IMG/VR virus record: IMGVR_UViG_3300009155_000035
Reading direction: 5' to 3' (one strand)
DNA length: 64,000 nucleotides
Origin: a virus
Taxonomy: Duplodnaviria; Caudoviricetes
The first letter of the stretch is position 1, and every line of letters starts with the position of its first letter. The translations under genes and the position numbers were made by a program. Below, piece after piece: positions 28,798 through 59,812 of the stretch. The notes beneath the pieces were generated by a model, which was given only the letters and a program-made list of their open reading frames with translations, was not told the origin of the DNA and ran no database searches.

Positions 28798-29145
28798 ATG
28801 GCAATAACACATCTAGATCAATCAAAGCACTGGCGAGCCGAAGAGGTAAAAATCATCGGCGATCGTGCTGTGAGGTTTAGCGATGTATGCGTACATGAAT
28901 TCTCAGTAGGCGATGTTGAAGATCATGAATTCTCTATAGGTGATGTCGAAGGTCCTGAAATCTATGCCGCTGGTCCATTATGGGATTGGCAAGAGTCTGA
29001 CGCAGGCAAGTGGATTATGGAGAACGCTGTTGAAAAACCGTACTACATAAAGACATTAGATTATAATTCCCGGAGGCATCGATACAAAATCATGGCTCGA
29101 CTCAACGAGCAAGATCAAACTTATTGGAAGTTGAAATACGAATGA
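28798..29145 (+). CDS. Hypothetical protein
   Basis: ORF with an internal HEFS(V/I)GDVE tandem duplication; ATGA overlap downstream. Confidence 0.65.
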   Translation: MAITHLDQSKHWRAEEVKIIGDRAVRFSDVCVHEFSVGDVEDHEFSIGDVEGPEIYAAGPLWDWQESDAGKWIMENAVEKPYYIKTLDYNSRRHRYKIMARLNEQDQTYWKLKYE

Positions 29146-30122
29146 ATATACTAGTAACAGGTGGATTAGGTCTTATTGGACACAATGTAGTTAAACGTTT
29201 GCAAGATGCTGGACATCTTGTTTCTATTATGGATACTAAAACAAACTATGGTATCATCCCTCAAGATGAAATTGATTACTTGATGGCCGAACGTAGAAAG
29301 AAAATCGCAGTAGCTAGCTATATCTATGATAGAGACATCTGTGATGCACAATCAGTTGACCATGTGTTCAACGTAGAGCAACCAGAGATTGTGATTCACA
29401 TGGCCAGCTTTCCAAGACAAAAAGTAGTTAATGCAAATCCTGCATGGGGAAGTCGTGTTATGAGTGAAGGCTTGCTCAATTTGCTAGAAGCCAGCGACAA
29501 ATACGATGTGCGTAAGTTTATCTACATCAGTAGTTCAATGGTGTACGGTGACTTCACCGATGATGTAACAGAAGATTACGACTGCAAACCACAAGGTCAA
29601 TATGGTATTATGAAACTTGCCGGCGAGTGGCTAGTTAAAGACTATACACGTAGAACTAATCTTGTTCATACTATTATTCGTCCCAGTGCTGTATACGGTG
29701 AACTAGACGTTGAAGATAGGGTTATTGCCAAATTCATGCTTACTGCTATGCGAGGAGGTACATTGAATGTCAATGGTGCCAACGAAACACTAGACTTTAC
29801 CTACGTTGAAGATGCTGCCGATGGTATTGTTGGCGCCGCATTAAGCGACAATACAGAAAACAAAACTTACAATATCACTAAGTCACATAGCAGAACATTG
29901 CTTGATGCCGCACAATTAGCAGTAAAATACGCAGGCAAAGGCTCAATCAATGTGCGTGACAAAGACGCAGACTTCCCAAGTCGTGGCGCATTAAACATTG
30001 ATGCCGCTCGTAGAGACTTTGGCTACGATCCTAAGGTAGACGTAGAAGAAGGCTTTCAAAAGTATTATGCATGGCTTAGCAAGTCAGCATTTTGGTCAAC
30101 TACATTAAAGGAAAAATTATGA
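29142..30122 (+). CDS. NAD-dependent sugar-nucleotide epimerase/dehydratase
   Basis: VTGGLGLIG; SSSMVYG; YGIMK; DFTYVED. Confidence 0.9.
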   Translation: MNILVTGGLGLIGHNVVKRLQDAGHLVSIMDTKTNYGIIPQDEIDYLMAERRKKIAVASYIYDRDICDAQSVDHVFNVEQPEIVIHMASFPRQKVVNANPAWGSRVMSEGLLNLLEASDKYDVRKFIYISSSMVYGDFTDDVTEDYDCKPQGQYGIMKLAGEWLVKDYTRRTNLVHTIIRPSAVYGELDVEDRVIAKFMLTAMRGGTLNVNGANETLDFTYVEDAADGIVGAALSDNTENKTYNITKSHSRTLLDAAQLAVKYAGKGSINVRDKDADFPSRGALNIDAARRDFGYDPKVDVEEGFQKYYAWLSKSAFWSTTLKEKL

Positions 30123-31090
30123 ACGTATTAGTAACAGGCGGTCTCGGCCTTATCGGACATCGTGTGGTACACTCGTTAGAGAAGCGTGGTCACCAGGTGA
30201 CCATTATTGATAACAAAACCAACTACTTTGATTTTGTTTCTCAAAAAGAATTAGACATATTGCATCAAGAGCGACTGTCTACAATTAAAACTCGTGATAT
30301 TCACTATGTTGATGTTCGCAACACACAACAAATCAATCCAATCATAGAACTGGTCAAGCCTGAAATTGTATTTGACTTAGGCACAAACGGTCGCCAACAC
30401 CAACTGCGTGAACAGCCAGTGGATGGCACCGCCACTATGACCATTGGTCCGGTCAATGTTCTTGAAGCCTGCGTTAAACACAAAGTTCGTCGATATGTGT
30501 TTGCCAGTTCTCCTCTGGTGTATGGACGTTATGAAGCCAATGTCAAGGAAGATGCTCCCAAAGATCCGTACAGTATTTTTGGGGTATGGAAGCTGGCCAA
30601 TGAATACTTGGCAAAAGATTATGCTCGACGCTTTGGACTAGAGTACACTATTTGTCGATTCAGTCAAATATATGGTCCCATGGACATGGACAATCGTAAC
30701 ATGAGCAGACTTTGTACAGCGGCCCTCAAAGGTGGAGTGTTGCGTGTAAAAGGCAATGATGTTATCGATCATACCTATGTTGATGATGCTGCCGAAGGCA
30801 TGGTAATGGCTGCCCTAAGTGAGATTGGCCGAAATAAAATTTATAATATCACTGCCAGCGAGCCGTCTACGTATCGTGAAGCTGCCGAGCTGGTTGTTAA
30901 AATTGCTGGCCAAGGCACAATTGAAATGGTGCCGCCAGATCCTGAATTCGCTGGCCCACGTGGTCCGGTTAACTGCGACCTTGTGCGTTCAGAACTGGGC
31001 TGGGAACCAAAGACCACACTTGAACAAGGTATAAAAAATATGTTTACCTGGTTAAATAACTCTCCTTACTGGTCTCAAGTAATACGATAA
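30119..31090 (+). CDS. Second NAD-dependent epimerase/dehydratase paralog (FxxxK)
   Basis: VTGGLGLIG; ASSPLVYG; FGVWK; DHTYVDD. Confidence 0.88.
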   Translation: MNVLVTGGLGLIGHRVVHSLEKRGHQVTIIDNKTNYFDFVSQKELDILHQERLSTIKTRDIHYVDVRNTQQINPIIELVKPEIVFDLGTNGRQHQLREQPVDGTATMTIGPVNVLEACVKHKVRRYVFASSPLVYGRYEANVKEDAPKDPYSIFGVWKLANEYLAKDYARRFGLEYTICRFSQIYGPMDMDNRNMSRLCTAALKGGVLRVKGNDVIDHTYVDDAAEGMVMAALSEIGRNKIYNITASEPSTYREAAELVVKIAGQGTIEMVPPDPEFAGPRGPVNCDLVRSELGWEPKTTLEQGIKNMFTWLNNSPYWSQVIR

Positions 31091-31099
31091 CAACGTTAT

Positions 31100-32200
31100 A
31101 TGACCGTACTTACTATACCGTTTACTGGTCTTCGAAAACAATACAACAATCTACGAACTGAGATATTGGCTGCTACTGACAAGGTGTTGCGTAGCGGCCA
31201 ACTCATGAATGGTAACTGTACTGCTGAATTCGAAAACTGGCTAGCAAATAAAAACGGCGTCAAATATGCTGTAACTTGTCACTCAGGTACAGGCGCATTA
31301 GAAGTACTAGCCGAGTATCACTATCAAAGATTGAGCACCAACACTGCTCAACCAACTGTACTCATACCCACGTTTACCTATGCAGCCACAGCCAATGCAT
31401 TTATAAGAGCTGGCTGGAATGTTATTTTAGTTGATACTGATTCATACGGTGTGCTAGATGTAACAAAAATTCCCGATGTTGAATACCATGTTGTTTGCCT
31501 GGTTGGATTGTATGGCCTAGCAGTCACTCATCATGGTACAGCTAAGATTTGGGAAGAATGGCTGTACAAGAATGTCACAGTAATTGAAGATGCCGCACAA
31601 CATTGGCTATCAGCTGATTGCAAGCGTGTTGGCAATGCAGCCGCTATCAGTTTTGATCCAATGAAAAATTTACCTTGTTACGGCAATGGTGGTGCTATAG
31701 TTACTGATAGCAACGAATTGTTGCATTTTGCTCGCGCCTGGCGAGACAACGGAAAGTCTACTCATATCAACACAGGCACAAATAGTCGTATGAGTGAGCT
31801 TGATTGCGCACATATGATGGTAAAAGCACAATACATTGATCAGTGGCAAGAGCGCAGAAAGAAGATTGCAACACACTGGATTGATCGGTTAAAGCCCCAC
31901 AGTGACATTTGGACATTGATTGATGTACATAATTCTCACAATCATGCATTTCATAAATTTGTAATATACGTTTCAAGTAGAGATACATTGCAACGCAACC
32001 TTGCATTGCGCAAAATTGAAACCAAGATACACTATGCACAGCCCTTGCACGAAGTAGGTGTATTTAGAAATTTACAAGGTCCTGACATACTATCTAGTGC
32101 CAGCTCGTTGGCACGTGGTGTGTTGAGTTTACCTATCTATCCAGAACTAACAGATCTAGAAGTTGAATATATTATAGATCAAGTTATTGACTGTGCTTAA
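31100..32200 (+). CDS. DegT/DnrJ/EryC1/StrS PLP aminotransferase
   Basis: CHSGTGAL; IEDAAQ; SFDPMKNL..GNGGA; NSRMSE; LSLPIYP. Confidence 0.92.
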   Translation: MTVLTIPFTGLRKQYNNLRTEILAATDKVLRSGQLMNGNCTAEFENWLANKNGVKYAVTCHSGTGALEVLAEYHYQRLSTNTAQPTVLIPTFTYAATANAFIRAGWNVILVDTDSYGVLDVTKIPDVEYHVVCLVGLYGLAVTHHGTAKIWEEWLYKNVTVIEDAAQHWLSADCKRVGNAAAISFDPMKNLPCYGNGGAIVTDSNELLHFARAWRDNGKSTHINTGTNSRMSELDCAHMMVKAQYIDQWQERRKKIATHWIDRLKPHSDIWTLIDVHNSHNHAFHKFVIYVSSRDTLQRNLALRKIETKIHYAQPLHEVGVFRNLQGPDILSSASSLARGVLSLPIYPELTDLEVEYIIDQVIDCA

Positions 32201-33063
32201 TAATCTTTAGACTTCCATTCAAACACCGCATCAGCTAGTTCTTTGGTGTTTGTTGGAAATTGGTCTTGAATCAATATTGGTAAATCGTAACATCTAAAAA
32301 TGTTTACTAATTGATGTGCAATCCAAGCTTCTTCTATGATGTTCAGTTTAATAGGAGTATTCTTGCCTGCTAGAATATCTTCGAGTACTTGATTGCATTT
32401 AATTTGCGAGTGGTATCCTTGATTTACTTTCAAGAATTCTTGATGCAATTTACTAAGATGTACTGTTGGATAAAAATTAAGATTCTGGAAGTTGGCAATT
32501 TTGTTTAGTTCAAGATAAAATTGTGTCCAATCAAAGAACGCACTGAATGGAAATACATGTATATCATTTGGTGTAGCAGGATCAAACTCCGAGTACATAT
32601 CATACCCATACTCAGTATTCTCAAACATTGAATAAAAGTAATTTCTCATTTGAGATCTTGGGTACACTGACCTTTCACCAAACTCTTTGAGTATCATGTC
32701 TAGAAAAGGTTGCGCCTTGGGCAATTGTTTAAGCTTGTTAATTGTGTCAATTTCAAACTCTTCTAAGTCAACTGTTTGATCTCCTGCTCGTAAAAAGCTA
32801 TTAGATACTGCAATTAGCATATCCTTTTGTGAAGGTACAATGCGTACCACACGGTCATTGTGATCAAAAGGAACATTGTAATACGACCAATGATATGCCT
32901 TTACTATAGAACGATAACCACTACAAGAATTTTTAACATGGCAAGCACCTGTATCCGTAAACATAGGCCTGTTGACATCAAACCCATTTTGCCAAATAAA
33001 AACATTGACCACTAGCTCAAGATAGTGCCCGTGCAGTCCCCCAAAGAAATCAATTTTGTCCAT
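32197..33063 (-). CDS. Hypothetical protein
   Basis: IDFFGGLHGHYL N-terminus; 288-aa ORF. Confidence 0.65.
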   Translation of the reverse strand: MDKIDFFGGLHGHYLELVVNVFIWQNGFDVNRPMFTDTGACHVKNSCSGYRSIVKAYHWSYYNVPFDHNDRVVRIVPSQKDMLIAVSNSFLRAGDQTVDLEEFEIDTINKLKQLPKAQPFLDMILKEFGERSVYPRSQMRNYFYSMFENTEYGYDMYSEFDPATPNDIHVFPFSAFFDWTQFYLELNKIANFQNLNFYPTVHLSKLHQEFLKVNQGYHSQIKCNQVLEDILAGKNTPIKLNIIEEAWIAHQLVNIFRCYDLPILIQDQFPTNTKELADAVFEWKSKDY

Positions 33064-34681
33064 CGGGTATTAATTTTCTTTTTATAAATGCATAGCTAGC
33101 CAGCCACTCCCACTCGTAGCTCTTTTTCAGTGCATCAAAGTCACCACCTACTTCTTTGTAATACTCTAGAGCATCTTCTGCACCCCAGCGACTCCACTCC
33201 TCATTGACAATCTGCATACTACCGGGATTGGTGTTTAGCCACTGAGACAATCTATATTCGTTTTCAACGTCTGGCAAACTGGCTCGTAGTTTAAGTGCTT
33301 CTCGGAACGCTGTTCTCCAAGCTATCCAAGGCGATGTATTATATATCGCAGTGCCACTTGATATGGGTACTACTTCGTGTGCGCTGTCTAGTGTAAAGTC
33401 CAGTCCTCGACCAGTGTTGGTCAACACTAGTTGTTTGTTGTAGGCAATCATGGCCTGATGTCCGTACTCTAGTCCGTTAACAGGATTGTGAGCATGAAAA
33501 ATATAGTGCTTGGGTTCTTGCATGCGATCTGGTTGCCAAGTCCAATCAAATTTTTCATTTACAAATAGCTTGGCAAACACTGCAAAGAACCATGGTGTTG
33601 TACTAGATTCGGCAGCGGCATGGTACGCTGCCACACGACCGTTGACGTTTTGCACACGGTTGATTCTGTATCCGCTGTTACTTAAAACATTACCTCCCAC
33701 ACAGTTAACCAAGTGTTGGTACGTGTCTTCGGCCATGGTCTCGCCGTTGCTGATGAACACAATGTCTAGGGGCCGGGCTTTGAGATAAATTTTACTTTTA
33801 TCTATGTAAGGATAATCGTACACTTGGTTCTTGATATAATTTTTACATTCTCTGGGCACCACTGCTGTACCGTGGCCGTTACTCAATGGCACAACTGTTT
33901 TGGTGCGCTCTTGCCACAGGCTTACTGTAGGAGACTGTATGCTCATACCAATTCCTTGATGAAACTGTACCAGGGGTGTTGTAAATTCGTGTTTCCAAAT
34001 AGCTGTGGCCAAACTATCATGTGCATATTCAACTTCGGGCATGGGCGATCGAGGAACCGATATGTCTTCAACAAAGTGCAAAGTTTCAAACCATTCTAGA
34101 ACTTTTAAATTTTCAATCTTGTTTAAAAAGCTAGGCACATGTACATAAAAAGTATCCCCAAATTTTTGTTCGTTACTGGCAAACACATGCAACATATCTA
34201 GTTGCCACTCGCTTGGATGCCAAGTAAAATCAAAATTGTTGTAATCACACACATCACTGGTAACCCAGCAATATTCCCAATCAAGTTTGCTCAATGCTCT
34301 ACGCATAGTGCCCAAGTAGTCACTAATATAACGTGCATTTACATCGCCAACATCCGGGCTTGTGGGAGTATGTTTGATATGTAGTCTAGGAGCAGATTTC
34401 CTAGGTACAGTATGATGGTTGCGGTTGACGTCGGTGTATGTGCCCTGTGGCAGTAACCAAGTGCCACCATTTTCTTGATGTTGGCTGGGCCAAACATGTG
34501 CCTGTTGTGCTTCCCAAGGTTTGGGTTCCCAAAGGAAATCAAAGTCTGTGTAGTCCGATAAGTAATCAACAACCCAACAAAACCTTGTGCGACTACGAGC
34601 ACATGCATCATTAATACTGTCAGCTGGCTGTTCGTGTGGAACCAATCCAGTGGGACGATTTATATAGAATACATCAAACAT
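33050..34681 (-). CDS. Putative glycosyltransferase-like protein (two domains)
   Basis: C-terminal DIVFISNGE...AYHAAAESSTTPWFFAV...WRTAFRE resembles 54057-54989. Confidence 0.55.
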   Translation of the reverse strand: MFDVFYINRPTGLVPHEQPADSINDACARSRTRFCWVVDYLSDYTDFDFLWEPKPWEAQQAHVWPSQHQENGGTWLLPQGTYTDVNRNHHTVPRKSAPRLHIKHTPTSPDVGDVNARYISDYLGTMRRALSKLDWEYCWVTSDVCDYNNFDFTWHPSEWQLDMLHVFASNEQKFGDTFYVHVPSFLNKIENLKVLEWFETLHFVEDISVPRSPMPEVEYAHDSLATAIWKHEFTTPLVQFHQGIGMSIQSPTVSLWQERTKTVVPLSNGHGTAVVPRECKNYIKNQVYDYPYIDKSKIYLKARPLDIVFISNGETMAEDTYQHLVNCVGGNVLSNSGYRINRVQNVNGRVAAYHAAAESSTTPWFFAVFAKLFVNEKFDWTWQPDRMQEPKHYIFHAHNPVNGLEYGHQAMIAYNKQLVLTNTGRGLDFTLDSAHEVVPISSGTAIYNTSPWIAWRTAFREALKLRASLPDVENEYRLSQWLNTNPGSMQIVNEEWSRWGAEDALEYYKEVGGDFDALKKSYEWEWLASYAFIKRKLIPDGQN

Positions 34682-35789
34682 GATAAGAATAGACGAGATT
34701 TATAATAATACTTTCCTACCTTTTATTAAAAAAAACATTGGACATACTCGAATGTTTAACTGCGATCCACCAGGTAAAACTGACCCTGATAGTTTGTGTA
34801 ACATTGGTAGTGACAAGCAACAACTTAATTATATATTCTTTCATGACCAAGAGCCAATTCATTTGGACGTACATGCACCGTTATTTGACAGTGTAGTTGA
34901 ACGAAATTTGGATTTAAATTATGGTCAAGGTCCAGCTAAGAAAGCCATTGTTACCAGTGAGTACCGTAGTGAGTTTGTTGACAAAGCATGTGAGCAATAT
35001 GGATGGAAACCTTACTATTACTTCTTCCACGGCTGGGCGGCGCTGGACTGGTATAGAGGATACAATCGAACGTATCTAATGCCTTTGCCGCACGAACGTA
35101 CTATTACCAAAACATTTGTTGCTCCCAATCGAATTGTAGCAGGTGCAAGACAACACAGATTGTTGATGTTGTATCATATTTTTAAACGTGGACTTACTGA
35201 TAACTGGATTAGTTGTCCCGAAGTTTGTCCGGCAGAGAATATTTCAGTAGTAGAAGCTGCCGCACAGTTGAAGAGAGTATACCCAGATATTGAATCCGTG
35301 TTTGCTCAGCAGACCCTGCCCATTAACTTCCCTGGTGAACATAATTCGCCTATGCACAGTAATTGGTTGAGTTTGTTTGACGAATCAGCTGAAAGTTTGT
35401 TGTATCTTGTTACTGAAACTGTAGCATCGGGACGCAGACAGCACCTAACCGAAAAGTCATTTAAACCAATATGCCTGGGTATGCCATTTGTTATTGTGGG
35501 CCCACAAGGTAGTTTGCAATATCTACGCCAGTATGGGTTTAAAACCTTTGGTGACTTTTGGGATGAACGATACGATACCGAAGTTGATGAAGCACGGCGA
35601 ATAGAAAAAATTGCCGACTTACTCACACAGTTAAACTCGTACACTCAAAAACAAAAACAAGACTTGTTTTTAAGCATGCTACCAATTATCAAGCACAATT
35701 ATGACCATTTTTACAATGGTAGGTTTGAAATATTGTTATGGCATGAACTTTCTAGAATGCTTGACCAATTAAAAACAGATTTCACATGA
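34680..35789 (+). CDS. Putative glycosyltransferase (TEKxxKP family, copy 1)
   Basis: LVTETV...LTEKSFKPICLGMPFVIVG...GFKTFGDFWDERYD. Confidence 0.55.
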   Translation: MIRIDEIYNNTFLPFIKKNIGHTRMFNCDPPGKTDPDSLCNIGSDKQQLNYIFFHDQEPIHLDVHAPLFDSVVERNLDLNYGQGPAKKAIVTSEYRSEFVDKACEQYGWKPYYYFFHGWAALDWYRGYNRTYLMPLPHERTITKTFVAPNRIVAGARQHRLLMLYHIFKRGLTDNWISCPEVCPAENISVVEAAAQLKRVYPDIESVFAQQTLPINFPGEHNSPMHSNWLSLFDESAESLLYLVTETVASGRRQHLTEKSFKPICLGMPFVIVGPQGSLQYLRQYGFKTFGDFWDERYDTEVDEARRIEKIADLLTQLNSYTQKQKQDLFLSMLPIIKHNYDHFYNGRFEILLWHELSRMLDQLKTDFT

Positions 35790-36910
35790 TATTTTGTTTT
35801 GATCAAATGGGTCAACCCAATCTTGCACAAGTAGACGACAATTATGACCACCATTGGCCCAGGGTTGTGCCTTTGAGATTATTGATGTACACTGACAATT
35901 ACCAAACAATACTAACCACTGCGTCATTTGATCATGCATGGTATCCAATTGGCATAGGTTGGTTTGATTTTTCGGTAGATTATTTTGCATTGATGAGTGC
36001 CATGGCCCAAGAAAAATTACGCACTGGCAAATTAACTGTGTTATTTTATTATCACGAAGGTGACAATCCTACTGTTATTAAACAGCGCATTGATAGTTTG
36101 GTTATGCAACATCAGTTATCTGCACATTGCTACAAATTTATCAGTGCCAATTCAAGTGCGCGACATCTTGATAACTTTTTGTATTTTCCCGATCATGAAT
36201 TTTTCTTTAGAGTTACCAACCAAACTCAGTTGCCAGTAACAGTCAGTCCCACTCGCCCTTATAGATTCACTGCTATAAATCGATTACACAAGGTATGGCG
36301 TGCCGCATGCATGAGCGACTTGTATCACCGTGGTATATTAGATCAAAGCTTGTGGAGTTACAACACTGCTAATCAATCCTGTTTAGACGAACACGCCGAC
36401 AATCCTTTGGAACTAGACGCTGTTCCAAATTGGGATATTAGAATGGCACAGTTTCTTGAACTTACTCCGCACTATTGCGATAACCTTACCACAGCACAAC
36501 ACAACAATCACAACTGGGTCAACACTGATTTGTACACACAGTCCTATTGTCATATTGTGTTTGAGACACTGTATGATGTAGATCGCAGTGGTGGTGCATT
36601 TATCACTGAAAAAACTTGGAAGGCCATAAAATACGGGCAGCCGTTTGTGATAGTATCTGGTGCAGGCACACTAAGAGCTCTAAGAGATCTAGGGTATCGT
36701 ACATTTGATTCAGTAATCAACAACACATATGACAGTATAGAAAACAATACTGATCGGTGGCTGGCCATTGTTGATACATTAAAGGCTCTACGTCTTGATG
36801 CTTCGTGGCTGGCAAAGTGCCAATCCGATATAGACCACAATCAAAAACATTTTGACAGCAGGAGTATCGACCCTGTAAATAGACTACTCGAGGAAATCCA
36901 ATGTCATTAG
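35786..36910 (+). CDS. Putative glycosyltransferase (TEKxxK family, copy 2)
   Basis: IVFETL...FITEKTWKAIKYGQPFVIV...GYRTFDSVINNTYD. Confidence 0.55.
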   Translation: MIFCFDQMGQPNLAQVDDNYDHHWPRVVPLRLLMYTDNYQTILTTASFDHAWYPIGIGWFDFSVDYFALMSAMAQEKLRTGKLTVLFYYHEGDNPTVIKQRIDSLVMQHQLSAHCYKFISANSSARHLDNFLYFPDHEFFFRVTNQTQLPVTVSPTRPYRFTAINRLHKVWRAACMSDLYHRGILDQSLWSYNTANQSCLDEHADNPLELDAVPNWDIRMAQFLELTPHYCDNLTTAQHNNHNWVNTDLYTQSYCHIVFETLYDVDRSGGAFITEKTWKAIKYGQPFVIVSGAGTLRALRDLGYRTFDSVINNTYDSIENNTDRWLAIVDTLKALRLDASWLAKCQSDIDHNQKHFDSRSIDPVNRLLEEIQCH

Positions 36911-40700: not shown

Positions 40701-40798
40701 TTGTAGATAAATGGATCACGTTTTCTAAGCTCTTTGAGCTTGCGACGATATTGTACTTCTAGTCGAATTCTGTTTATAATGTTAATTAACCATTTCAT
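40697..40798 (-). CDS. 33-aa basic peptide (MKWLINIINRIRLEVQYRRKLKELRKRDPFIYK)
   Basis: Fills the gap with ATGA overlaps at both ends. Confidence 0.65.
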   Translation of the reverse strand: MKWLINIINRIRLEVQYRRKLKELRKRDPFIYK

Positions 40799-47981: not shown

Positions 47982-47995
47982 TTAAATAAAGTCCA

Positions 47996-49955: not shown

Positions 49956-51093
49956 AGTTCATGAACTCTTGAGGAAATTCGCGAGATACCTGTTGTCCGT
50001 ATTCCAGCAGCCGTTGCTGATTGTGCTCACATATTGACCTTGACGCTGACAAAAAGCTTGCAAGATCCTGACAACATAAGTCTTCTATTACCTGTGCTTG
50101 GCGTACAAATCGAGTGTATGGACTAGGTATTTCATCAAAGCTTTCATCAATCAAGCTGTCAAATGTTTTAAATCCTAGATTTCGTATGTCTTGATAAAAG
50201 CCATGATTGGCCACAGCGATCCAAGGATGTCCCATCATGATAGGCTTCCATATTTTTTCTGTAAAGAACGAGTGTCGAGACTCGTACACAGTTTCTGTTA
50301 CTAGACTAAAGTAAGTGTCAATATAGGGTTCGGGCTTTAAATAAATTTCGCCCCATTCATTATTGAACAAATCATATTTGACAAAATTATCGTTTTCCAA
50401 TGACAAATTTTTCTGTGTACGATGTGCGTAACGATCAAATTCATAATATGGGTCGAGTACTTTGATTACCTCTTCTTTTTGCATTAAATCAACACCATCC
50501 ACTGTCAATGGCAACCGTGTGGGTCCAACCACGCCCATGGTACTCAAACAAGTGTACAGACTTTGTTCCAGCAAGCCAGTCTGGCGCATGCGAGCCAACA
50601 TCCACTTACGATGTTGTCTATGCCGACCGTTGAGAAACAAAAATTTATAGGGCTTTTTAGTCTTTTCGAATATCTCAGGTGTTCGTTTTATTGCTTCAAA
50701 GTTTTCAGAAAATTGCAATATATCGTGTGCAAAGCGATCAAACTTATGATAGCGGAAATACGGCTCCATGTCGCCGCCGGTGAGCAAGAGTATCTTTCCA
50801 GACTCTGCTAGATCTTGTATGTTGTGTCTAATTAACTGCCCGTGCATGGTACTTGATCCTTCCCAAGGGTTGGAAAATACCACAGTTATATTGTGCTGAT
50901 CAATAAGCTCTCGTACTCGTTGATTGTTCTTTTCCATCCAGGGTCTACCTATTAGGTACACTGCACCCGGATGTACAATATCTCGTTCGATGTCATCAAA
51001 CTCACCGTCAGCATAGGGTTTGACTAGGTCATACACTTCGCATGCACGATTTACAATCAATTTAAAGCTTTTTTGCATATTGTTCACATTCAT
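49930..51093 (-). CDS. Putative glycosyltransferase (TEKxxKP family, copy 3)
   Basis: LVTETV...FFTEKIWKPIMMGHPW...GFKTFDSLIDESFD. Confidence 0.55.
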   Translation of the reverse strand: MNVNNMQKSFKLIVNRACEVYDLVKPYADGEFDDIERDIVHPGAVYLIGRPWMEKNNQRVRELIDQHNITVVFSNPWEGSSTMHGQLIRHNIQDLAESGKILLLTGGDMEPYFRYHKFDRFAHDILQFSENFEAIKRTPEIFEKTKKPYKFLFLNGRHRQHRKWMLARMRQTGLLEQSLYTCLSTMGVVGPTRLPLTVDGVDLMQKEEVIKVLDPYYEFDRYAHRTQKNLSLENDNFVKYDLFNNEWGEIYLKPEPYIDTYFSLVTETVYESRHSFFTEKIWKPIMMGHPWIAVANHGFYQDIRNLGFKTFDSLIDESFDEIPSPYTRFVRQAQVIEDLCCQDLASFLSASRSICEHNQQRLLEYGQQVSREFPQEFMNFISKNVRS

Positions 51094-52441
51094 TCCACCA
51101 CGCAGTCATTTCAGGGAATGTCTCTAGGAAGTTGGTGTTTCTACGTCGGTCATGCTCGCTAAAAAAACGATAAAAGTCGGCTTTGGCCACCGAGTTGTCT
51201 TGCCGTTGCCCTTCACGCATCCAGGCAATATCCCTGCGTAGGCGTTGTACTTCGTAGTCTTTGAATCCTTGAAATGGATTGTCAGCAGTTTCTAAGTTTT
51301 GTTCCATCCAGTCTGCTGTGCGTTCTAAGACCGATGCATAGCTTTCGGGCAGTATTTGCAGACTCTGCCAGGCTGGGGTCCTAAGCACAGGTGTATCAAA
51401 CCACACACGTTGGTATGTTTTACTGTGTTCCTTGCGCAACATCAAGATCCATTCCATGAGATTCTGGAACCCAATAACGCTTAGATTATTCATTGTAACA
51501 ATAAATGTCAAACTGTTGCGATATGGAATTTCTGAGAGATATCGTGTTACATAGTTATAGAAACGAGGCCAAGAAAGCCCGTGTCTAATGTATTCAGCTT
51601 GCAGTATGCGTCCGGTGTCCAAGCTAACGTACTGCATGAAATGCTCAATGCGCCCGTCACATAGCTGTTTTACTTTGCCAAGGTATGATTCAAACAATTC
51701 AGGTTCTACACTGAAGTTACTGGTTACATTCAAATGCAGTTTGCTACTGGGGTTATTTAACACATAGTCAAACACACGGTGGGTGTTGCGATCCATGAGT
51801 GGTTCGCCGCCGGTCATTCTAAAATGCTCAAGCTGGGGATACAATGTGGGCCACCACTGCCAAAATGCTTCTACATAGGGGTTGTGTTCTCTGTTGAGAA
51901 TGGGTCGTCTATCCCCAACAAAATAATCCGGGTTATTGTGTGGCACTGCGGTAGGATACGCACCTTGACTCTTGGCCTCATACATCCAGGTACTGCTGAA
52001 CTGTGGGCTACAGTAGCTACATGCTAGATTGCAGGCATGATTAAAATTTACTTCCACATAACTGGGCACAACTCCGGTTTCGTCGCCAGTGGAATTGCGT
52101 ATCTGTTCAAAGTCCTGTGCGGCCCAGGGCTCACCTGACCTATAGTGTCGGTCACTCATTTTGCCAAGGTCTTCCATGTTCCAACAGTAGGAACATTCTG
52201 CAGGACGCTCGTTGCGCAACATAATTCGTCGCTGTTGTTTCTTGTGTGGCGTATTGTGCAGTTGGTCAGGGTGTTGTTCAAGACCTTCTACAGGTATTTT
52301 GTGCAAGGGTGGATGATAGCATGAGTTGTTCATGCCTGTGGTTAGATGTAGGCTAACCTGTTTCCACTTTGCCAAACACAGTGCAGGCCCCAATTGGTCT
52401 TTCATTTCTTCAGCTGACGTTAAAAATTTGCTTTTACTCAT
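51062..52441 (-). CDS. Radical SAM protein (AKW..SCxH subtype)
   Basis: CLAKW..SCYH..CSYC; ACNLACSYC; paralog of 45600-46970. Confidence 0.88.
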   Translation of the reverse strand: MSKSKFLTSAEEMKDQLGPALCLAKWKQVSLHLTTGMNNSCYHPPLHKIPVEGLEQHPDQLHNTPHKKQQRRIMLRNERPAECSYCWNMEDLGKMSDRHYRSGEPWAAQDFEQIRNSTGDETGVVPSYVEVNFNHACNLACSYCSPQFSSTWMYEAKSQGAYPTAVPHNNPDYFVGDRRPILNREHNPYVEAFWQWWPTLYPQLEHFRMTGGEPLMDRNTHRVFDYVLNNPSSKLHLNVTSNFSVEPELFESYLGKVKQLCDGRIEHFMQYVSLDTGRILQAEYIRHGLSWPRFYNYVTRYLSEIPYRNSLTFIVTMNNLSVIGFQNLMEWILMLRKEHSKTYQRVWFDTPVLRTPAWQSLQILPESYASVLERTADWMEQNLETADNPFQGFKDYEVQRLRRDIAWMREGQRQDNSVAKADFYRFFSEHDRRRNTNFLETFPEMTAWWNECEQYAKKL

Positions 52442-53498
52442 TGATCAATTGTAATAGTTTTGAGGCGAAGTTAATACCAGGCAATTGCCTTTTATGTACT
52501 TGTGTTAGCATATTCCGGCATGCTTGATGTTCTGGGTGACTGGGGTTTAATACATCATTGTTTCCAAATGTGCCATTTTTAATTTCCCAGATATCTGGAG
52601 TTGGACTTGGGTTCTGGTTCCATGTGCCCCAGTCATCTAGTTGTGTAAAGTTGCCGTTGAATCCAAAGCGAACACACATTTCAGCAAAGTTTTGCATATC
52701 ACGATAGTTGTTACGTTGTACCACAAAAGACAACAGCACTGCGGCACGGCCACGATTTTCTTTAAGATATTTAAAATTTTCTTGAAGTACTGACCAGGAG
52801 CCACCGCGTCGTACATCATGATATACTTCTGCTGATCCAGCGTCAACACTGATCATGTACAGTGTTATTTGTTTTTGTATTGCTGTTTTACTCAACTGTT
52901 TTTTAATCAGCAAGCCATTTGTAAACAGTGTAAACGTTTGAGTGGGCTTGCCTTGGTATGAGTGTAGCAAAGGCCTGTAGATATGGCTGGCCATTGGATC
53001 GCCACTGGTTGACAATGTTATGTGTATGCGCTCTTCAAATTTATTTAATAAATTCACAGTGTGTTCAACAGCCGCAAGCTTTTGTTCAAACACCGGTCCT
53101 GAACTGTACATTATGGGTTCACGACGACAACTGGGGCAATGTAAATTGCAACTGTCATCGATACCAAAGTTTAATTGATACTTGGTTTCGTTGTAGTTTT
53201 GGTTCAATATGCCGCAATGTTCGACTGCACACCAGGTATACTTTTTTTCAGTTATACTATCCTGTATAGTATGTGCAATAGGGTTATCCCATACTTGTTC
53301 AAGGCTATTAAAGTCAGTTATTTTACCAACTGGCACTGGCAACCAGCCATCACATGTACACAGCAAGCAATTGCTGTCAGAATCAATCGCCACCACTTTC
53401 CAGGGACGATTGCAACTGTTTGGTATTGGTTCAGGGTAGTCGTTGCCGCGTGGCAATACCTGAAGTTTATAGCTATATCGGTCGGACAAATTAAACAT
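52434..53498 (-). CDS. Radical SAM protein with N-terminal Cys cluster
   Basis: CNRPW..CTC..C; SCNLHCPSC; SGDP. Confidence 0.85.
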   Translation of the reverse strand: MFNLSDRYSYKLQVLPRGNDYPEPIPNSCNRPWKVVAIDSDSNCLLCTCDGWLPVPVGKITDFNSLEQVWDNPIAHTIQDSITEKKYTWCAVEHCGILNQNYNETKYQLNFGIDDSCNLHCPSCRREPIMYSSGPVFEQKLAAVEHTVNLLNKFEERIHITLSTSGDPMASHIYRPLLHSYQGKPTQTFTLFTNGLLIKKQLSKTAIQKQITLYMISVDAGSAEVYHDVRRGGSWSVLQENFKYLKENRGRAAVLLSFVVQRNNYRDMQNFAEMCVRFGFNGNFTQLDDWGTWNQNPSPTPDIWEIKNGTFGNNDVLNPSHPEHQACRNMLTQVHKRQLPGINFASKLLQLINE

Positions 53499-54063
53499 CT
53501 ATGGAATTTTGTAAATATTTAAACAAATCATTCATACCATCACGATTCAAGTGTCCGTCGGGCAATCTATAGGAGGCTGGTATGTAAGGGTACAGCAATG
53601 TTTCTGTTGTTTTTCTTTTTTCCCAAGAAAACGCAATAACTTTTTTATTTTGATTTTTTAAAAATGAAAGTAATCCGTCGATTAGCATGTCACTGAGATC
53701 GTCACAGTAGGGAGGACCGTACACTGTGTAAAAATATTTGTGCATTTCTTGATGCGCAGTATCAAGTGCAGATGGTTCAAGTCCAAATCCTCGACCACCG
53801 ATTCCAGGATAAAAATCTAAATTTTGATCATTGTAGCCAATGTAAAAGCGTGAACTAAAAGTAAATCCCAACACTATTACATCAAAGTCTTTGAAGTTCT
53901 TGTATGTGTCCATGACCATGGCAAGATTGCTCTTGCCTAATCGAGACTGGTCCATGACGTTGTAACCACCTTGAACGGAAAACAAACTGCCAAGGGACTG
54001 TTCTCTTGGCAGTCCCTGACCGTACACCATGCTACAGCCATCAAGGTAAAGACTTTTTACCAT
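53491..54063 (-). CDS. SGNH/GDSL-like protein
   Basis: LDGCSMVYG; GKSN; DGHLN. Confidence 0.65.
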   Translation of the reverse strand: MVKSLYLDGCSMVYGQGLPREQSLGSLFSVQGGYNVMDQSRLGKSNLAMVMDTYKNFKDFDVIVLGFTFSSRFYIGYNDQNLDFYPGIGGRGFGLEPSALDTAHQEMHKYFYTVYGPPYCDDLSDMLIDGLLSFLKNQNKKVIAFSWEKRKTTETLLYPYIPASYRLPDGHLNRDGMNDLFKYLQNSIDV

Positions 54064-54989
54064 CCTTCTTGTGCCCGAATTACATCAATTTCACGAACCA
54101 TGACACCACGGTTGTGCCAGTTGGATCTGTAGTGTTGTTTAAAGAAACGGCTTTGTTCAACTTCAAACATCATGATTGGTAAGTCTAATTGTGTGCGCAG
54201 TTCTTCGCTGACTCTAAATGCCAGTCGTTCAGGATCTGAGTCCTGCACACTTGCCCATAGGTCTTCTAGTGCATCAAAGTTTTGTACTAGCCGATAGTCC
54301 CAGTCTGTGAGCATGGTCATGTATGTGCCCATTCTTGCTCCGGCAATAGACCAGGCACCGTGTTCAACATCAAGGCCAATATTGTGCCAAATAGTCAAGT
54401 GATCTAAATTGCGTTGATGTACACGGTCTCTAAATTCAGCTACAGTGGGCCGGGCCCCACGGTTCAAGCACATCTTAACACCTTCACGGAATCCAGCACG
54501 CCAGGCGTGAAACTCGTCACCATTGGGATATGTTGTGGAGTAGCAGTCGTGCATGGGCCAATACAGTGGATCAAAACAAAACTCTACTTCGGTTTCTGTG
54601 CGTCCGTCGGTGTTTTCATGTGTACGCATGCGGTTTACAAACTCACGTGTCCATGAGCTGATTCCGCCGTTGCCGTACCGGAGTCCGTTGATGTGATTAC
54701 GTGCTCGCCAACGAAAAACAGCACGTTCGTAATCAGCGTTTTCAAACACCAGTGTTTGATTAAAAAAATCAGCGTCGGGCATGTTATCGCCATCAATCAA
54801 GATAAAGCGTTCAGTTTCGCTAGCGGCAGCGGCTGCTTTGTGTGCGGCATCACTGCCTTTAACTCCGTCAACTCGTTGTGCCCAAGGCACAAGATTTTTA
54901 ATTTTGATCCAAAATTCTTCTCGTTGTGGTTCGTCGTAGCTTAGATAAATGCAGTCTAAGTCTGCTACATCAATTTGTTTCTGTGACAT
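54057..54989 (-). CDS. Putative GT-A-fold glycosyltransferase
   Basis: DCIYLSYDEP...AAHKAAA...FILIDGDN (DxD); WRAGFREG. Confidence 0.6.
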   Translation of the reverse strand: MSQKQIDVADLDCIYLSYDEPQREEFWIKIKNLVPWAQRVDGVKGSDAAHKAAAAASETERFILIDGDNMPDADFFNQTLVFENADYERAVFRWRARNHINGLRYGNGGISSWTREFVNRMRTHENTDGRTETEVEFCFDPLYWPMHDCYSTTYPNGDEFHAWRAGFREGVKMCLNRGARPTVAEFRDRVHQRNLDHLTIWHNIGLDVEHGAWSIAGARMGTYMTMLTDWDYRLVQNFDALEDLWASVQDSDPERLAFRVSEELRTQLDLPIMMFEVEQSRFFKQHYRSNWHNRGVMVREIDVIRAQEGW

Positions 54990-55308
54990 AATTTTTTTTA
55001 CTCCAATATACTGCAGGTTCTGAATTGACCACAATACAAATATCTTGTGGATGGCACATTGTGCCAGTGCTTCCGGGTGTTAGTTTTGAGCTAACTGTGA
55101 CTTTTGTTTCGATTAACTTTCCGTTGCGAACTCGCACATTGCTGGGACTTTTGGCAAAAGTTTCTTGATCAATGTCAATGTATGTACCTGGCAGGTCTTC
55201 CATGCTGTAAAATAGTGGTAGACCATTTTCGTCATGATACAATCTAAAAAATATAGGCGCAGGCGCGGGTGCTCCAAGCAGTATAGCCCAAAACTCATCA
55301 GATGTCAT
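54970..55308 (-). CDS. Hypothetical protein
   Basis: MTSDEFWAIL...FFRLYHDENG. Confidence 0.65.
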   Translation of the reverse strand: MTSDEFWAILLGAPAPAPIFFRLYHDENGLPLFYSMEDLPGTYIDIDQETFAKSPSNVRVRNGKLIETKVTVSSKLTPGSTGTMCHPQDICIVVNSEPAVYWSKKNYVTETN

Positions 55309-56080
55309 CGATCCAGCGTTTGTCATGATAATGAAATGCTCCGTGTTGTGCTATGGTGTTGATGCGTAGTTCATGGTTGTTGTGTTCCCATACTAATTCT
55401 TTGTGCCAGGGGTCTTGCAATGTACCAACAATGTGCCGCTTCATATGTGTGATTGTTGGATATGTACTAAACGGCATGGTGCATCTTTCTGGGCCAATGA
55501 TGTTTGCTGCCATGGCATACACCACATCTGTGCTGGGCACTTCTTCGGGGAATTTTAGCAATTTTTTAAAGTCGTCCCAGTTGGCAAATATAGATTGCAC
55601 TGTGTTGAAAAACTCCATGGCGGTTTGACTCAAGCGCCAATATGTAACAGCGTTGTACACATCGGGCAAATTGTTTTTGTCAAATATCTGTCTGTAATAT
55701 CTGTTGGTAGATACAATATTGCGCCAGTCTCTACAGCCAGTACTGATTACAACATCACGGTGTCTAAACATGGTCCACCAGTGGCCGATCTCACTGGTAA
55801 TTAACATATCAGCTTCAAGTTTGATTGTTTCCCTAAAAGGACTAGCATGAAACACTTGCCAGTCATTAGCAAACCCATTGGTGCTGGTCGGATAAGGATA
55901 CGGATGCACATAGTCAAACACTGTGTCCACTGCTACATCTGCATTGGTCAACAAACATACTTCGGCGTCAGGATGCCAGTGTTTGATACTTTGAGCTAAC
56001 TTACGAGCGCATTGAACATAGTCAATATCGTTGTTTTGAAACGCTGGAATAATATAACCTTGCTCAGAAATCGGCTTCAA
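55298..56080 (-). CDS. Putative nucleotide-diphospho-sugar transferase (GT8-like)
   Basis: YVQCARKLAQSIK; SPFRETIKLEADM. Confidence 0.6.
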   Translation of the reverse strand: MKPISEQGYIIPAFQNNDIDYVQCARKLAQSIKHWHPDAEVCLLTNADVAVDTVFDYVHPYPYPTSTNGFANDWQVFHASPFRETIKLEADMLITSEIGHWWTMFRHRDVVISTGCRDWRNIVSTNRYYRQIFDKNNLPDVYNAVTYWRLSQTAMEFFNTVQSIFANWDDFKKLLKFPEEVPSTDVVYAMAANIIGPERCTMPFSTYPTITHMKRHIVGTLQDPWHKELVWEHNNHELRINTIAQHGAFHYHDKRWIDDI

Positions 56081-56882
56081 TTAACTCTCCCAGGTGTCGT
56101 TTGCCCATGGCATGAAAGTCTGTGTTGGAAAATGTTAGATGTTTAGAGCGGTTATCTGTGTCAATGTACTCTATTGCGTAACATCTAATATCATTATCCA
56201 TTGGCATTTTTGTTAATCGTGCTTCTGGCAGCACAGTCAGCAGAGGCCAGGGTATTTCATCCACAGACAAGGTATGCCCACTTACAATTCCAAGTGCAAT
56301 GCTCAAGGCATAGTCATTGCGGTAGTTAGAGTTAGTAAATCCATACAAGTTTTGGTAGTGCGGCCAGTTGTTACGCACCATGTTCATGCAATCAAATATG
56401 TATTGAGCCATGTTGCTTTTACGAAACATCATGACTGTGGCCCACCACATGGGAAAGTTATAACGCCCAAACACATTTAATTGGTCAAGCCGTTGCCCAC
56501 GACTTAGATCAAAGCTTTCGCGATGACACATAAAGTCTTTGTCTGCATGTAATATCACAGACAAATCGTTGCCATTAACCACGTAGTCGGCATCCAACAC
56601 CAGTGTTCTATCATATGGTGTTAAACTATATGCATCAGTTCTATTGCGATTATACCAAGGAACATTGTGTCCTATGTCAGCAAAGTGTCTAACACCTCCT
56701 TGTTCTCGGCCAGCAACAATTACATGTTCAAAATTATATTTGTCTGCAAATTCTGCGTTATCAGTTACAAGGGTAGTACCTATACCAAGATGTGTGGCAA
56801 TATTACGGGCACTCCAGGCTGCCATTCTAACATAATCTATGTCATCGTTGTTATAGGCAAATATCAGTGCACCGGTACTCAT
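56064..56882 (-). CDS. Putative nucleotide-diphospho-sugar transferase (GT8-like)
   Basis: TPYDRTLVLDADY (DxD); YRNDYALSIA; paralog of 55298-56080. Confidence 0.62.
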   Translation of the reverse strand: MSTGALIFAYNNDDIDYVRMAAWSARNIATHLGIGTTLVTDNAEFADKYNFEHVIVAGREQGGVRHFADIGHNVPWYNRNRTDAYSLTPYDRTLVLDADYVVNGNDLSVILHADKDFMCHRESFDLSRGQRLDQLNVFGRYNFPMWWATVMMFRKSNMAQYIFDCMNMVRNNWPHYQNLYGFTNSNYRNDYALSIALGIVSGHTLSVDEIPWPLLTVLPEARLTKMPMDNDIRCYAIEYIDTDNRSKHLTFSNTDFHAMGKRHLGELIEADF

Positions 56883-57187
56883 CGTTTTTTTTGCAATGCT
56901 TGATGTTCAACCAGCCAGGCATTCATTTGCTCTTGCCATCGGCCCAGTACAAGGTATTGTAGTTCAACAGGGTCAACCTCAATAGGGGTTTCGTAAAGGT
57001 CTAGCAATACCACTTTGTCTTTGACTGGTATTGCCTGTAGCAGTGTCAGCAACTTGGGTCCGGCTCGCCACATTCCTCCGGTATAAGGAAATAACATTTT
57101 GGCTTCGTATTTTTCTTTGAGCATGCGTTTTGCCGAAACATGGTCAAATCTAGCTCGAGCGTGTGAAATTATAGAATCAGTATCCAT
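56879..57187 (-). CDS. Hypothetical protein
   Basis: 102-aa ORF with ATGA overlap. Confidence 0.7.
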   Translation of the reverse strand: MDTDSIISHARARFDHVSAKRMLKEKYEAKMLFPYTGGMWRAGPKLLTLLQAIPVKDKVVLLDLYETPIEVDPVELQYLVLGRWQEQMNAWLVEHQALQKKR

Positions 57188-57213: not shown

Positions 57214-57243
57214 AAAAGTAAAGGGCTTCAAAGCCCTTTACTG
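57214..57243 (-). terminator. Intrinsic terminator after the structural genes
   Basis: GTAAAGGGC/GCCCTTTAC stem; T-run on the minus strand. Confidence 0.7.
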
Positions 57244-58251: not shown

Positions 58252-58267
58252 AATCTAGTCCTAATTA

Positions 58268-59761: not shown

Positions 59762-59812
59762 GTATGGTTACTCCGTCCTGTTTGTATTTATCGCCGTTTT
59801 TTGTACGTATAT

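Follow-up and report, generated by a model that had tools for sequence, protein, structure and literature searches.

A putative sugar-tailoring gene block with radical SAM arrays beside the fibre genes of an uncultured giant freshwater phage

Introduction

Virus-encoded virion glycosylation is exemplified by the fibrils of Mimivirus and Megavirus, the capsid of chloroviruses and the O-glycosylated capsid and tail of mycobacteriophages, and most work on virus-encoded glycosylation so far concerns giant eukaryotic viruses and mycobacteriophages. In these virion systems, the viruses bring their own nucleoside diphosphate (NDP)-sugar short-chain dehydrogenases/reductases (SDRs), DegT-type aminotransferases and soluble glycosyltransferases (GTs), and a cytoplasmic amino-sugar glycan is placed on fibres or capsid independently of host membranes. 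Here we analyse a block of tightly packed genes of about 28 kb (positions 29124-57187) that carries predicted enzymes of the same kinds. It lies in IMG/VR virus record IMGVR_UViG_3300009155_000035, from a giant phage in a freshwater metagenome, and the whole stretch analysed (the window) is 64,000 nucleotides long. The block differs from the Mimivirus, chlorovirus and mycobacteriophage systems in that its acceptor is a candidate only. Mycobacteriophage systems have one or two GTs only, and to our knowledge none of the virion glycosylation systems has the arrays of radical S-adenosylmethionine (SAM) enzymes, the amidinotransferase or the carbamoyltransferase found here. We tentatively read the block, at a likelihood that we place somewhat short of even, as a cytoplasmic pathway that activates an amino sugar, assembles an oligosaccharide and decorates it heavily, the most likely acceptors being the neighbouring Ser/Thr-rich, fibre-like virion proteins.

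A second comparison is with the aminoglycoside pathways that contain StrS/StrB1, BtrN/BtrR, TobZ and GenK/GenD1. The DegT/StrS, AGAT/StrB1-type and TobZ/NodU-type families are common to these pathways and the block, a twitch domain matching that of BtrN and B12-type radical SAM enzymes also occur in the block, and the chemical logic leading from OH through C=O and NH2 to a guanidino group is available in it. In contrast to these pathways, the block has no cyclitol synthase, carries the twitch domain at the N-terminus instead of the C-terminus, contains five paralogous radical SAM enzymes, has GT10-like rather than GT1/GT4 transferases, and is viral, located by fibre genes and devoid of resistance and export genes. 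The first-pass annotation of this DNA had described the enzymes as exactly the families of StrS/StrB1, TobZ, BtrN and GenK/GenD1. The families are indeed the same; orthology with the named enzymes was not found, all NCBIfam equivalog scores lying far under their cut-offs, and the link to BtrN and GenK is one of analogy, not of functional homology.

The module is missing from cultured phages. A megablast search with 24 kb against 50,697 GenBank phages gave no match, a tblastn search of GenBank phages gave none for a protein of the block's GT-like TEK family (described below) or for the Ser/Thr-rich protein encoded beside the block at 57265-58251, and a literature search for comparable phage clusters returned nothing relevant. 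Among the cultured phages in these GenBank records, only cyanophage S-SCSM2R has an amidinotransferase homologous to that of the block (30% identity); its gene sits among KdsA/KdsB, GT and 2-oxoglutarate (2OG)-oxygenase genes. This marine T4-like phage resembles the source phage in its amidinotransferase, DegT-like and radical SAM genes and differs from it in that the set is much smaller and scattered and includes no TEK homologue.

Results

The block is conserved in uncultured relatives. A scan of IMG/VR with one of its radical SAM proteins found 88 related stretches, 80 of which were fetched with flanks of up to 10 kb, the longest source contig measuring 352 kb; occupancy was counted in the 46 loci that are complete on either side, and genes near the flank ends are undercounted by this procedure. 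Five radical SAM enzymes of the N-terminal-twitch (N_Twi) type, the carbamoyltransferase and the homologue of a protein encoded at 40795-41883 are each present in all 46 of these jumbo-phage loci, the TEK genes and the gene at 54057-55034 in 42, the amidinotransferase gene in 37 and the homologue of 33050-34681 in 19, a count limited by flank reach. The number of radical SAM copies per related locus ranges from five to ten. Searches by tblastn with all window proteins showed that the gene order is common to the relatives, including contigs of 320-352 kb. On one strand lie, in order, the Ser/Thr-rich gene, a small open reading frame (ORF), two GT8-like genes, a second small ORF, the homologue of 54057-55034, a radical SAM gene, a TEK gene, three to four further radical SAM genes, the homologue of 40795-41883 and the carbamoyltransferase gene; on the opposite strand lie the amidinotransferase gene, two TEK genes, the homologue of 33050-34681 and the DegT gene. 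The Ser/Thr-rich gene adjoins the cluster in all 12 related loci that reach that far. The first-pass annotation had named a lack of synteny in relatives among the findings that would refute it; the relatives clearly show the contrary, the core being kept in all 46 full-flank loci. The genes are real, as judged by 40-80% protein identity to syntenic genes in the 80 IMG/VR contigs; 17 ORFs have no Pfam match even at E<5, and PHROGs gave almost none. With one orthologous radical SAM protein as query, more than 7,900 of 8,000 candidates scored in a metagenome protein collection were relatives, which indicates that the clade is abundant.

Around this core the relatives carry 189 ORFs without a counterpart in the window, which fall into 61 clusters. 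A family scan of the cluster representatives, which included four window ORFs (these gave nothing beyond DUF6071), identified FkbM as the commonest extra family (18 loci), together with O-methyltransferases and other methyltransferases, PfkB and GHMP sugar kinases, a cytidylyltransferase-like protein, a GFO/IDH/MocA oxidoreductase, a hexapeptide acyltransferase, an AMP-binding enzyme, APS kinase and GT25. By family assignment, these variable genes are of the kinds that activate sugars and tailor glycans. A constant core with exchanged tailoring genes would be analogous to the arrangement in surface-glycan islands such as those for O-antigen and flagellin.

Three contigs binned with bacteria carry related genes. 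Two contigs of 148 and 183 kb assigned to a Haliscomenobacter sp. metagenome-assembled genome (MAG; NZ_JBBAKG010000003.1 and NZ_JBBAKG010000001.1, our L081 and L082) encode radical SAM proteins 79-84% identical to those of the window, together with homologues of the TEK, 40795-41883, carbamoyltransferase and 54057-55034 proteins; they are almost certainly jumbo-phage contigs binned with the bacterium, or else a hint at the host. In a binned Legionellales MAG (PBLX01000002.1, our L083), positions 11667-12761 encode a homologue of the 40795-41883 protein with 50% identity, read in translation table 11 with two in-frame stops. The same contig carries homologues of 54057-55034, 47334-47981, 49428-49955, a B12-type radical SAM enzyme and the carbamoyltransferase; those of 47334-47981, 47996-49465 and 49428-49955 lie together, the small ORF adjoining the 2OG-like gene. 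It is probably a misbinned phage contig, and the stops possibly reflect stop-codon recoding or pseudogenes.

The radical SAM enzymes form the largest conserved group. NCBIfam model NF033640 (N_Twi_rSAM) has a curated cut-off of 170 bits for the full model, which five of the block's proteins exceed. The first-pass annotation had counted six twitch-type enzymes; the sixth (52434-53498) has an N-terminal SPASM domain and falls outside NF033640 (25 bits), and it is present in eight of the 46 full-flank loci. All five N_Twi proteins have a four-Cys N-terminal motif of the form C...CC/SCH...CxxC, followed by CxxxCxxC and GGEP, the cysteines lying at C32, C(C)51, C93 and C96 upstream of C140xxxC144xxC147, and their alignment separates two subtypes, CC and SC(H/Y)H. 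Pfam SPASM matches at about residues 10-97, ahead of Radical_SAM, and this N-terminal region matches the C-terminal twitch (auxiliary-cluster) domain of BtrN (E 1e-4). The fifth enzyme (51062-52441) is a paralogue of the last enzyme of the tandem array (45600-46970; 31% identical). The nearest solved cores are those of TvgB (8VPO, E 9e-9) and SkfB, which are maturases of peptides that are ribosomally synthesised and modified after translation (RiPPs), and of MoaA and BlsE; the similarity to RiPP maturases reflects only the generic radical SAM core held in common.

Homologues of the N_Twi enzymes at 33-42% identity occur widely in bacteria, including Bacteroidota, Bdellovibrionota and Elusimicrobiota. 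They are like the phage enzymes in their N-terminal four-Cys twitch and CxxxCxxC core and differ from them in that bacterial genes mostly occur singly, whereas a phage locus has five to ten tandem copies with GT-B genes interspersed. Among 121 ORFs neighbouring the bacterial genes, 12 matched Radical_SAM, eight SPASM, seven PhyH and four GT2, with no consistent functional signal. From the conserved partner genes in the phages we infer that the N_Twi enzymes act on sugars. Homologues of an N-twitch radical SAM enzyme and of the amidinotransferase also occur together in MH319727.1 (Marine virus AG-345-D19, 7,955 bp, single-cell-derived), so the pairing exists in marine viruses as well.

One B12-type radical SAM enzyme in the block and two upstream of it (4825-6501 and 7254-8744) had been proposed, and profile matches favour this assignment. 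The best NCBIfam matches of the enzyme at 47996-49465 are all B12 radical SAM families, under their cut-offs, and it has no Pfam B12-binding match; its upstream paralogue at 7254-8744 has a weak one (E 4.6e-4). In two paralogous pairs, 6668-8744 (+) and 47996-49955 (+), the B12-type enzymes (32% identical) are accompanied by small ORFs of 175-194 amino acids (aa) (6668-7252 and 49428-49955; 28% identical), and the gene order is opposite between the pairs.

The three TEK-family proteins are named after a motif E...TEK; an alignment of 16 sequences shows R172, E260, E275, K276 and K279 to be invariant. The motif recalls Arg195, Glu249 and Lys250 of the Helicobacter pylori GT10 fucosyltransferase, residues that Sun and colleagues are said to have described in 2007. 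Neither Pfam, including Glyco_transf_10, at E<5 nor a profile search of the PDB matched the family, and the nearest named Atlas cluster of the 35786-36910 protein is GT10 (score 0.80), which we treat as a lead. The structural model of this protein, searched against the PDB with Foldseek, gave a top 50 made up nearly entirely of GT-B glycosyltransferases, with probabilities up to 0.99. In the VIA comparison it matched phage T4 beta-glucosyltransferase (BGT) with Z 12.8 (root-mean-square deviation 5.2, 272 aligned residues, 9% sequence identity), H. pylori alpha1,3-fucosyltransferase with Z 11.7, T4 alpha-glucosyltransferase with Z 10.9 and many others with Z 10-11. On this modelled fold, the three TEK proteins are glycosyltransferase-like proteins of the GT-B fold.

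About seven GT-like ORFs had been proposed in the first-pass annotation: the three TEK proteins are solid, a GT8-like pair is weak and two GT2-like proteins are leads. The only profile matches of the GT8-like pair are to glycogenin (E 0.9-1.9) and to phrog_1903, a group without functional annotation, and an hhalign comparison of the family with Escherichia coli WaaO/WaaJ was not significant (probability 0.4, with only the LDAD/DxD region aligned). The same method found no significant similarity between the two GT-A-like families. The proteins at 54057-55034 and 33050-34681 have no Pfam, PHROG or PDB match, and GT2 is attached to them only as an automatic Atlas cluster name. In the 33050-34681 protein the unit C/F-W-V...(Y/F)-x-(D/N)-FD(F/W)-x-W-x-P is repeated three times ahead of a 54057-like region; the DGD motif is present in 54057-55034 and missing here, and the protein may, judged by its sequence, be a multi-module relative of the 54057 family that lacks DGD. 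All GT-like proteins of the block are acidic (pI 5.4-6.2).

The enzymes that would build the sugar and transfer groups to it belong to recognisable families. Pfam Epimerase confirms both proposed epimerase/dehydratase proteins, and we place them in the extended SDR epimerase/dehydratase superfamily only: their score with the dTDP-glucose dehydratase equivalog is 119 bits against a cut-off of 365, and all their NCBIfam matches are under curated cut-offs. The second SDR (30092-31090) reads SSP...FGVWK, so that FxxxK replaces the catalytic YxxxK, with a Tyr three residues earlier; on this motif it would be either an atypical or a non-redox SDR. The proposed DegT aminotransferase stands, with a full-length Pfam match and the lysine that binds pyridoxal phosphate (SFDPMK); its closest NCBIfam models are PseC and WecE-like, again under their cut-offs. 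The amidinotransferase has no Pfam family even at E<5, so it is a divergent member of its family. In phmmer searches of PDB sequences it matched human AGAT (E 7e-15), SxtG (2.5e-11), StrB1 (2.6e-11) and HsvA (4.5e-9) in three collinear stretches spanning residues 4-345, with ISCCT aligned to FHCWT at the catalytic Cys and GHGDS to MHIDA at the His and Asp, and it has in common with these relatives a C-terminal D-x-RRRG-x-L-x-x-YL. For the carbamoyltransferase both Pfam domains exceed their gathering scores (N-terminal 117 bits, cut-off 24; C-terminal 160 bits, cut-off 27), which upholds the family assignment; with 126 bits against a cut-off of 1000 for the NodU equivalog, it is not NodU itself.

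The setting of the block links it to the virion. Fibre or other virion genes lie at both ends of the window, and all genes between them are accessory. The earlier statement that the block abuts virion genes holds: the genes at 57265-63999, all on the minus strand, adjoin it, and a fibre gene (3-3215) lies at the other end. The two fibre-like proteins (58268-59761 and 3-3215) have an N-terminal domain in common, with 37% identity over 171 aa. Except for the signal peptide of an S11 peptidase, no transmembrane segment was found in the proteins of the cluster, and the cluster contains no initiating transferase, flippase, polymerase or exporter, which argues for a cytoplasmic acceptor. Given its composition and position, the Ser/Thr-rich protein at 57265-58251 is a candidate acceptor. 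The accessory genes upstream of the block encode B12 radical SAM enzymes, TctA/TctC, an amidohydrolase, MoxR/VWA proteins and ThyX, whose position beside the block is kept in two relatives (L054 and L055). TctA (8959-10443, +; E 9e-148) and a TctC/Bug-type periplasmic receptor (22456-23340, +) are parts of a tripartite tricarboxylate transporter, and one relative has a TctC-like gene inside its version of the cluster; these genes tentatively suggest a betaproteobacterial host, perhaps among freshwater Burkholderiales, and import of a substrate during infection.

Among the remaining proteins of the block, the two small ones proposed to be of SGNH type are supported as SGNH-like by conserved blocks and weak PDB profile matches: across an alignment of 10 sequences S8, G12 and N36 never vary and the GH block hardly does, and all 11 matches in the PDB profile search are SGNH/GDSL proteins (E 0.003-1.2). 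The conserved protein at 40795-41883 was modelled with AlphaFold2 (AF2) at a predicted local distance difference test (pLDDT) of 81.4 as a cyclophilin-like beta-barrel with a helical insertion. VIA gave middling Z scores of 8-9 to cyclophilins and to barrels that include the Pictet-Spenglerases McbB and KslB; Foldseek found no PDB match, the PDB profile search was null, and the look-alikes in AFDB are all uncharacterised. This protein and the S11 DD-carboxypeptidase (37935-38684) are additions to the enzyme list of the first-pass annotation.

Several genes are particular to the source phage. The S11 enzyme has a signal peptide (a hydrophobic N-terminus) and its gene is missing from all 80 related loci; going by its family, it may remodel host peptidoglycan, and it probably stands outside the pathway. 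The insertion at 46960-49955 is likewise missing from all 80 loci, and both were rejected as members of the conserved pathway. The insertion consists of a 129-aa ORF (-), 47334-47981 (-), 47996-49465 (+) and 49428-49955 (+). Its ORF at 47334-47981 had been called 2OG-Fe-like. With no Pfam or PDB match the family is not confirmed and the call is a lead only; HSD and FH are kept in the homologue on the Legionellales contig, and a cyanophage 2OG oxygenase matched over the HxD region by blastp at E 0.075. The 288-aa ORF at 32197-33063 has no Pfam, PHROG or meaningful PDB match, and a PDB match that would have made it a relative of a Plasmodium enoyl-ACP reductase was rejected as a low-complexity artefact.

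Table 1. Predicted genes and other features in and around the block, with positions in the window
Feature	Position	Strand	Evidence or remark
Extended SDR (epimerase/reductase type)	29124-30122	+	Pfam Epimerase E 5.8e-41; motif SSS...YGIMK
Paralogous extended SDR	30092-31090	+	Pfam Epimerase E 3.3e-41; 41% identical to 29124-30122
DegT/DnrJ/EryC1/StrS sugar aminotransferase	31100-32200	+	Pfam E 1.7e-59, 202 bits, profile positions 3-359 of 360
288-aa ORF, this phage only	32197-33063	-	No homologue in 80 related loci
543-aa protein, three W-x-P repeats	33050-34681	-	C-terminal part resembles 54057-55034 (blastp E 3e-4)
TEK-family GT-B-like protein, GT10-like motif	34680-35789	+	Paralogue of 35786-36910 and 49930-51093
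TEK-family GT-B-like protein, modelled member	35786-36910	+	AF2 model, pLDDT 72.6, predicted template modelling score (pTM) 0.77
AGAT/StrB1-type amidinotransferase	36901-37938	+	phmmer against PDB
Secreted S11 (PBP5-like) DD-carboxypeptidase	37935-38684	-	Pfam Peptidase_S11 E 3.8e-41; SxxK, SDN, KTG
NodU/CmcH/TobZ-type carbamoyltransferase	38681-40177	-	Carbam_trans_N E 1.6e-33; Carbam_trans_C E 6.3e-47
SGNH-like small protein, GDS...SN...GH	40143-40700	-	DUF6071 28 bits (cut-off 27)
Core 362-aa protein	40795-41883	-	46/46 loci; about 70 invariant residues
Four tandem N-terminal-twitch radical SAM enzymes	41867-43165, 43146-44393, 44354-45619, 45600-46970	-	NF033640 283, 334, 390 and 305 bits
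Phage-specific insertion, four ORFs	46960-49955	mixed	No homologue in 80 IMG/VR loci
2OG-oxygenase-like 215-aa ORF (lead)	47334-47981	-	HxD...H by eye
B12-type radical SAM enzyme	47996-49465	+	Radical_SAM E 2e-14; closest NCBIfam PhpK 4.6e-25
Third TEK-family GT-B-like protein	49930-51093	-	Between radical SAM genes; paralogy, alignment
Fifth N-terminal-twitch radical SAM enzyme, SC(H/Y)H subtype	51062-52441	-	NF033640 305 bits
Sixth radical SAM enzyme, N-terminal SPASM-like	52434-53498	-	Pfam SPASM 29-95, Radical_SAM 116-274
Second SGNH-like small protein, GCS block I variant	53491-54063	-	Alignment, PDB profile
Possible GT-A, IDGDN (DxD-like) motif	54057-55034	-	42/46 loci, 71-78% identity
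Conserved 118-aa ORF	54970-55326	-	36/46 loci
GT8-like paralogous pair (lead)	55298-56080, 56064-56882	-	LDAD/EAD motif
Conserved 102-aa ORF, first gene of minus-strand unit	56879-57187	-	24/46 loci
Ser/Thr-rich (34%), Cys-free protein beside block	57265-58251	-	Composition
Fibre-like virion structural protein	58268-59761	-	PHROG virion structural and tail-fibre matches
Baseplate-hub-like and head-closure-like segments	60580-63999	-	
Tail-fibre or collar-fibre protein	3-3215	+	PHROG match
ThyX	28085-28777		350 bp upstream of block

Discussion

If the block encodes a cytoplasmic glycan pathway, the two SDRs and the DegT aminotransferase would turn an NDP-hexose into an NDP-amino sugar by way of a keto intermediate that either an SDR or a BtrN-like radical SAM oxidation supplies, and the amidinotransferase would then transfer the amidino group of arginine to the sugar amine, giving a guanidino sugar. 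Successive sugars would be added by the three GT-B transferases of GT10-like type, together with two to four GT-A-like proteins. Interleaved with the transferases, the five N_Twi enzymes would abstract hydrogen from unactivated sugar carbons, and the sugar could be oxidised, epimerised, dehydrated or linked through a C-C bond as a result. The carbamoyltransferase would O-carbamoylate a hydroxyl, and the SGNH proteins may add or remove O-acyl groups. The first-pass annotation had proposed a heavily decorated glycan for virion proteins, the host envelope or DNA. Its carbohydrate part is backed by the enzyme families and by the sugar genes of the relatives; as to the acceptor, it offered three destinations among which we have a candidate. 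The amidinotransferase of cyanophage S-SCSM2R was detected in purified virions (PMC12801897), and this detection, together with the soluble cluster, the acidic GT-like proteins and the constant fibre neighbours, leads us to favour glycosylation of virion fibres to some degree.

A bolder version of virion glycosylation, which we consider possible and rather doubtful, is that the fibres are coated with a "radical-tailored" glycan. GT10-like transferases would alternate with N_Twi enzymes, then a functional class of their own and new, that rewrite sugar carbons each time a sugar has been added. Guanidino and carbamoyl groups would finish the chain, and the virus would carry a glycocalyx of aminoglycoside-like chemistry in which the variable tailoring genes might tune host range or shield the virion. 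We know of no protein-linked glycan that carries guanidino or carbamoyl groups.

Several observations weigh against a virion glycan pathway. The TEK model has its closest structural counterpart in a DNA glucosyltransferase, BGT, with GT10 within about 1 Z of it, and four of the seven proposed GTs are without statistical support. By motif reading the TDE motif of 4,6-dehydratases is in neither SDR, and the second SDR lacks the catalytic Tyr. A sugar-1-phosphate nucleotidyltransferase is missing from the 64-kb window, so the host must supply the NDP-sugars with which the pathway begins, and together with the SDR motifs this means that the early steps may need host-made substrates or radical SAM oxidation. 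A literature search on the function of N-terminal-twitch radical SAM enzymes found no characterised member, and since the bacterial contexts are mixed as well, sugar chemistry is an assumption for this family. Between the Ser/Thr-rich gene and the first gene of the block lies a perfect bidirectional terminator-like hairpin with an 11-bp stem (57217-57242); it separates the virion gene from the block, so that co-transcription is not obvious. All of the glycan chemistry and the acceptor, finally, are predictions from sequence.

The sugars might instead be destined for DNA. The GT-B enzymes would glycosylate 5-hydroxymethylcytosine (5-hmC) or 5-hydroxymethyluracil (5-hmU), other enzymes would decorate the DNA-linked sugar or the base further by carbamoylation, amination and amidination, and the phage would thereby evade restriction and CRISPR. 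This is the explanation suggested by the two T4 glucosyltransferases that rank high among the structural matches of the TEK protein (phage-encoded GT-B enzymes being common to the block and T4 hmC glucosylation), by the proximity of ThyX and its kept position in relatives, and by accessory genes that differ among close relatives, as an arms race predicts. The first-pass annotation also pointed out that NodU-like enzymes of phages reportedly can carbamoylate 5-hmC. We nevertheless think it unlikely. At the low identity given above, BGT is tied with GT10 and other GT-B enzymes, and the TEK motif is GT10-like. The window yielded neither a ThyA-like hydroxymethylase nor a TET/JBP enzyme, and its sole 2OG-like ORF is unconfirmed and phage-specific; in every relative examined the module has fibre genes as neighbours instead of replication or nucleotide genes. 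With seven transferase-like proteins and five radical SAM enzymes, the pathway is also far larger than any known DNA sugar modification; that acidic GT-like proteins are unusual for DNA-binding transferases is a weaker argument.

Remodelling of the host envelope, in which lipopolysaccharide (LPS), capsule or another surface glycan would be altered and, for instance, superinfection or the re-adsorption of progeny to lysing cells blocked, is in our estimate decidedly unlikely. Phages commonly carry genes for LPS and capsule, the S-SCSM2R amidinotransferase gene lies beside KdsA/KdsB, the relatives carry carbohydrate accessory genes, and a secreted DD-carboxypeptidase is inserted in the cluster of the source phage. 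Yet an initiating phosphoglycosyltransferase, flippase, polymerase, ligase, ABC exporter or membrane protein is missing from the cluster, envelope turnover takes time that a lytic giant phage hardly has, and the module adjoins fibre genes.

A diffusible aminoglycoside-like pseudo-oligosaccharide, which could halt host translation, exclude rival phages or poison neighbouring cells, is improbable. The enzyme set fits the aminoglycoside tailoring families (StrS, StrB1, TobZ, BtrN, GenK), all enzymes are soluble, and the homologous genes of cyanophage S-SCSM2R were annotated as "antibiotic synthesis genes", with a role that its authors regard as unclear (PMC12801897). However, neither 2-deoxy-scyllo-inosose synthase nor myo-inositol-phosphate synthase was found, genes for export or self-resistance are missing from the cluster, the chain suggested by five to seven transferase-like genes is longer than in typical aminoglycosides, and such a product leaves the constant adjacency to fibre genes without explanation.

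Very improbable, finally, is a RiPP-like modification without sugars, in which the N-twitch enzymes would crosslink or epimerise a phage protein with the GT-like proteins as accessories: the nearest solved cores are indeed RiPP maturases (TvgB, SkfB), but the likeness stops at the generic core, the N-terminal domain matches the twitch domain of BtrN, neither a RiPP recognition element (RRE) domain nor a conserved precursor peptide turned up, and the conserved partner genes are sugar enzymes.

The system is widespread and uncharacterised in uncultured phages. If a virion glycan pathway is what the block encodes, very abundant uncultured giant phages of freshwater would devote about 10% of their genome to an autonomous glycan factory, and the N_Twi radical SAM family would gain its first functional context. 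Virus-encoded glycosylation would be extended to radical chemistry, amidination and carbamoylation, and the cluster would be a source of new enzymes for the modification of sugars at unactivated carbons; the Ser/Thr-rich, fibre-like proteins beside it are a testable acceptor candidate. Should one of the rival explanations be true instead, the block would reveal either a DNA hypermodification of a new kind or an aminoglycoside-like compound produced by a phage.

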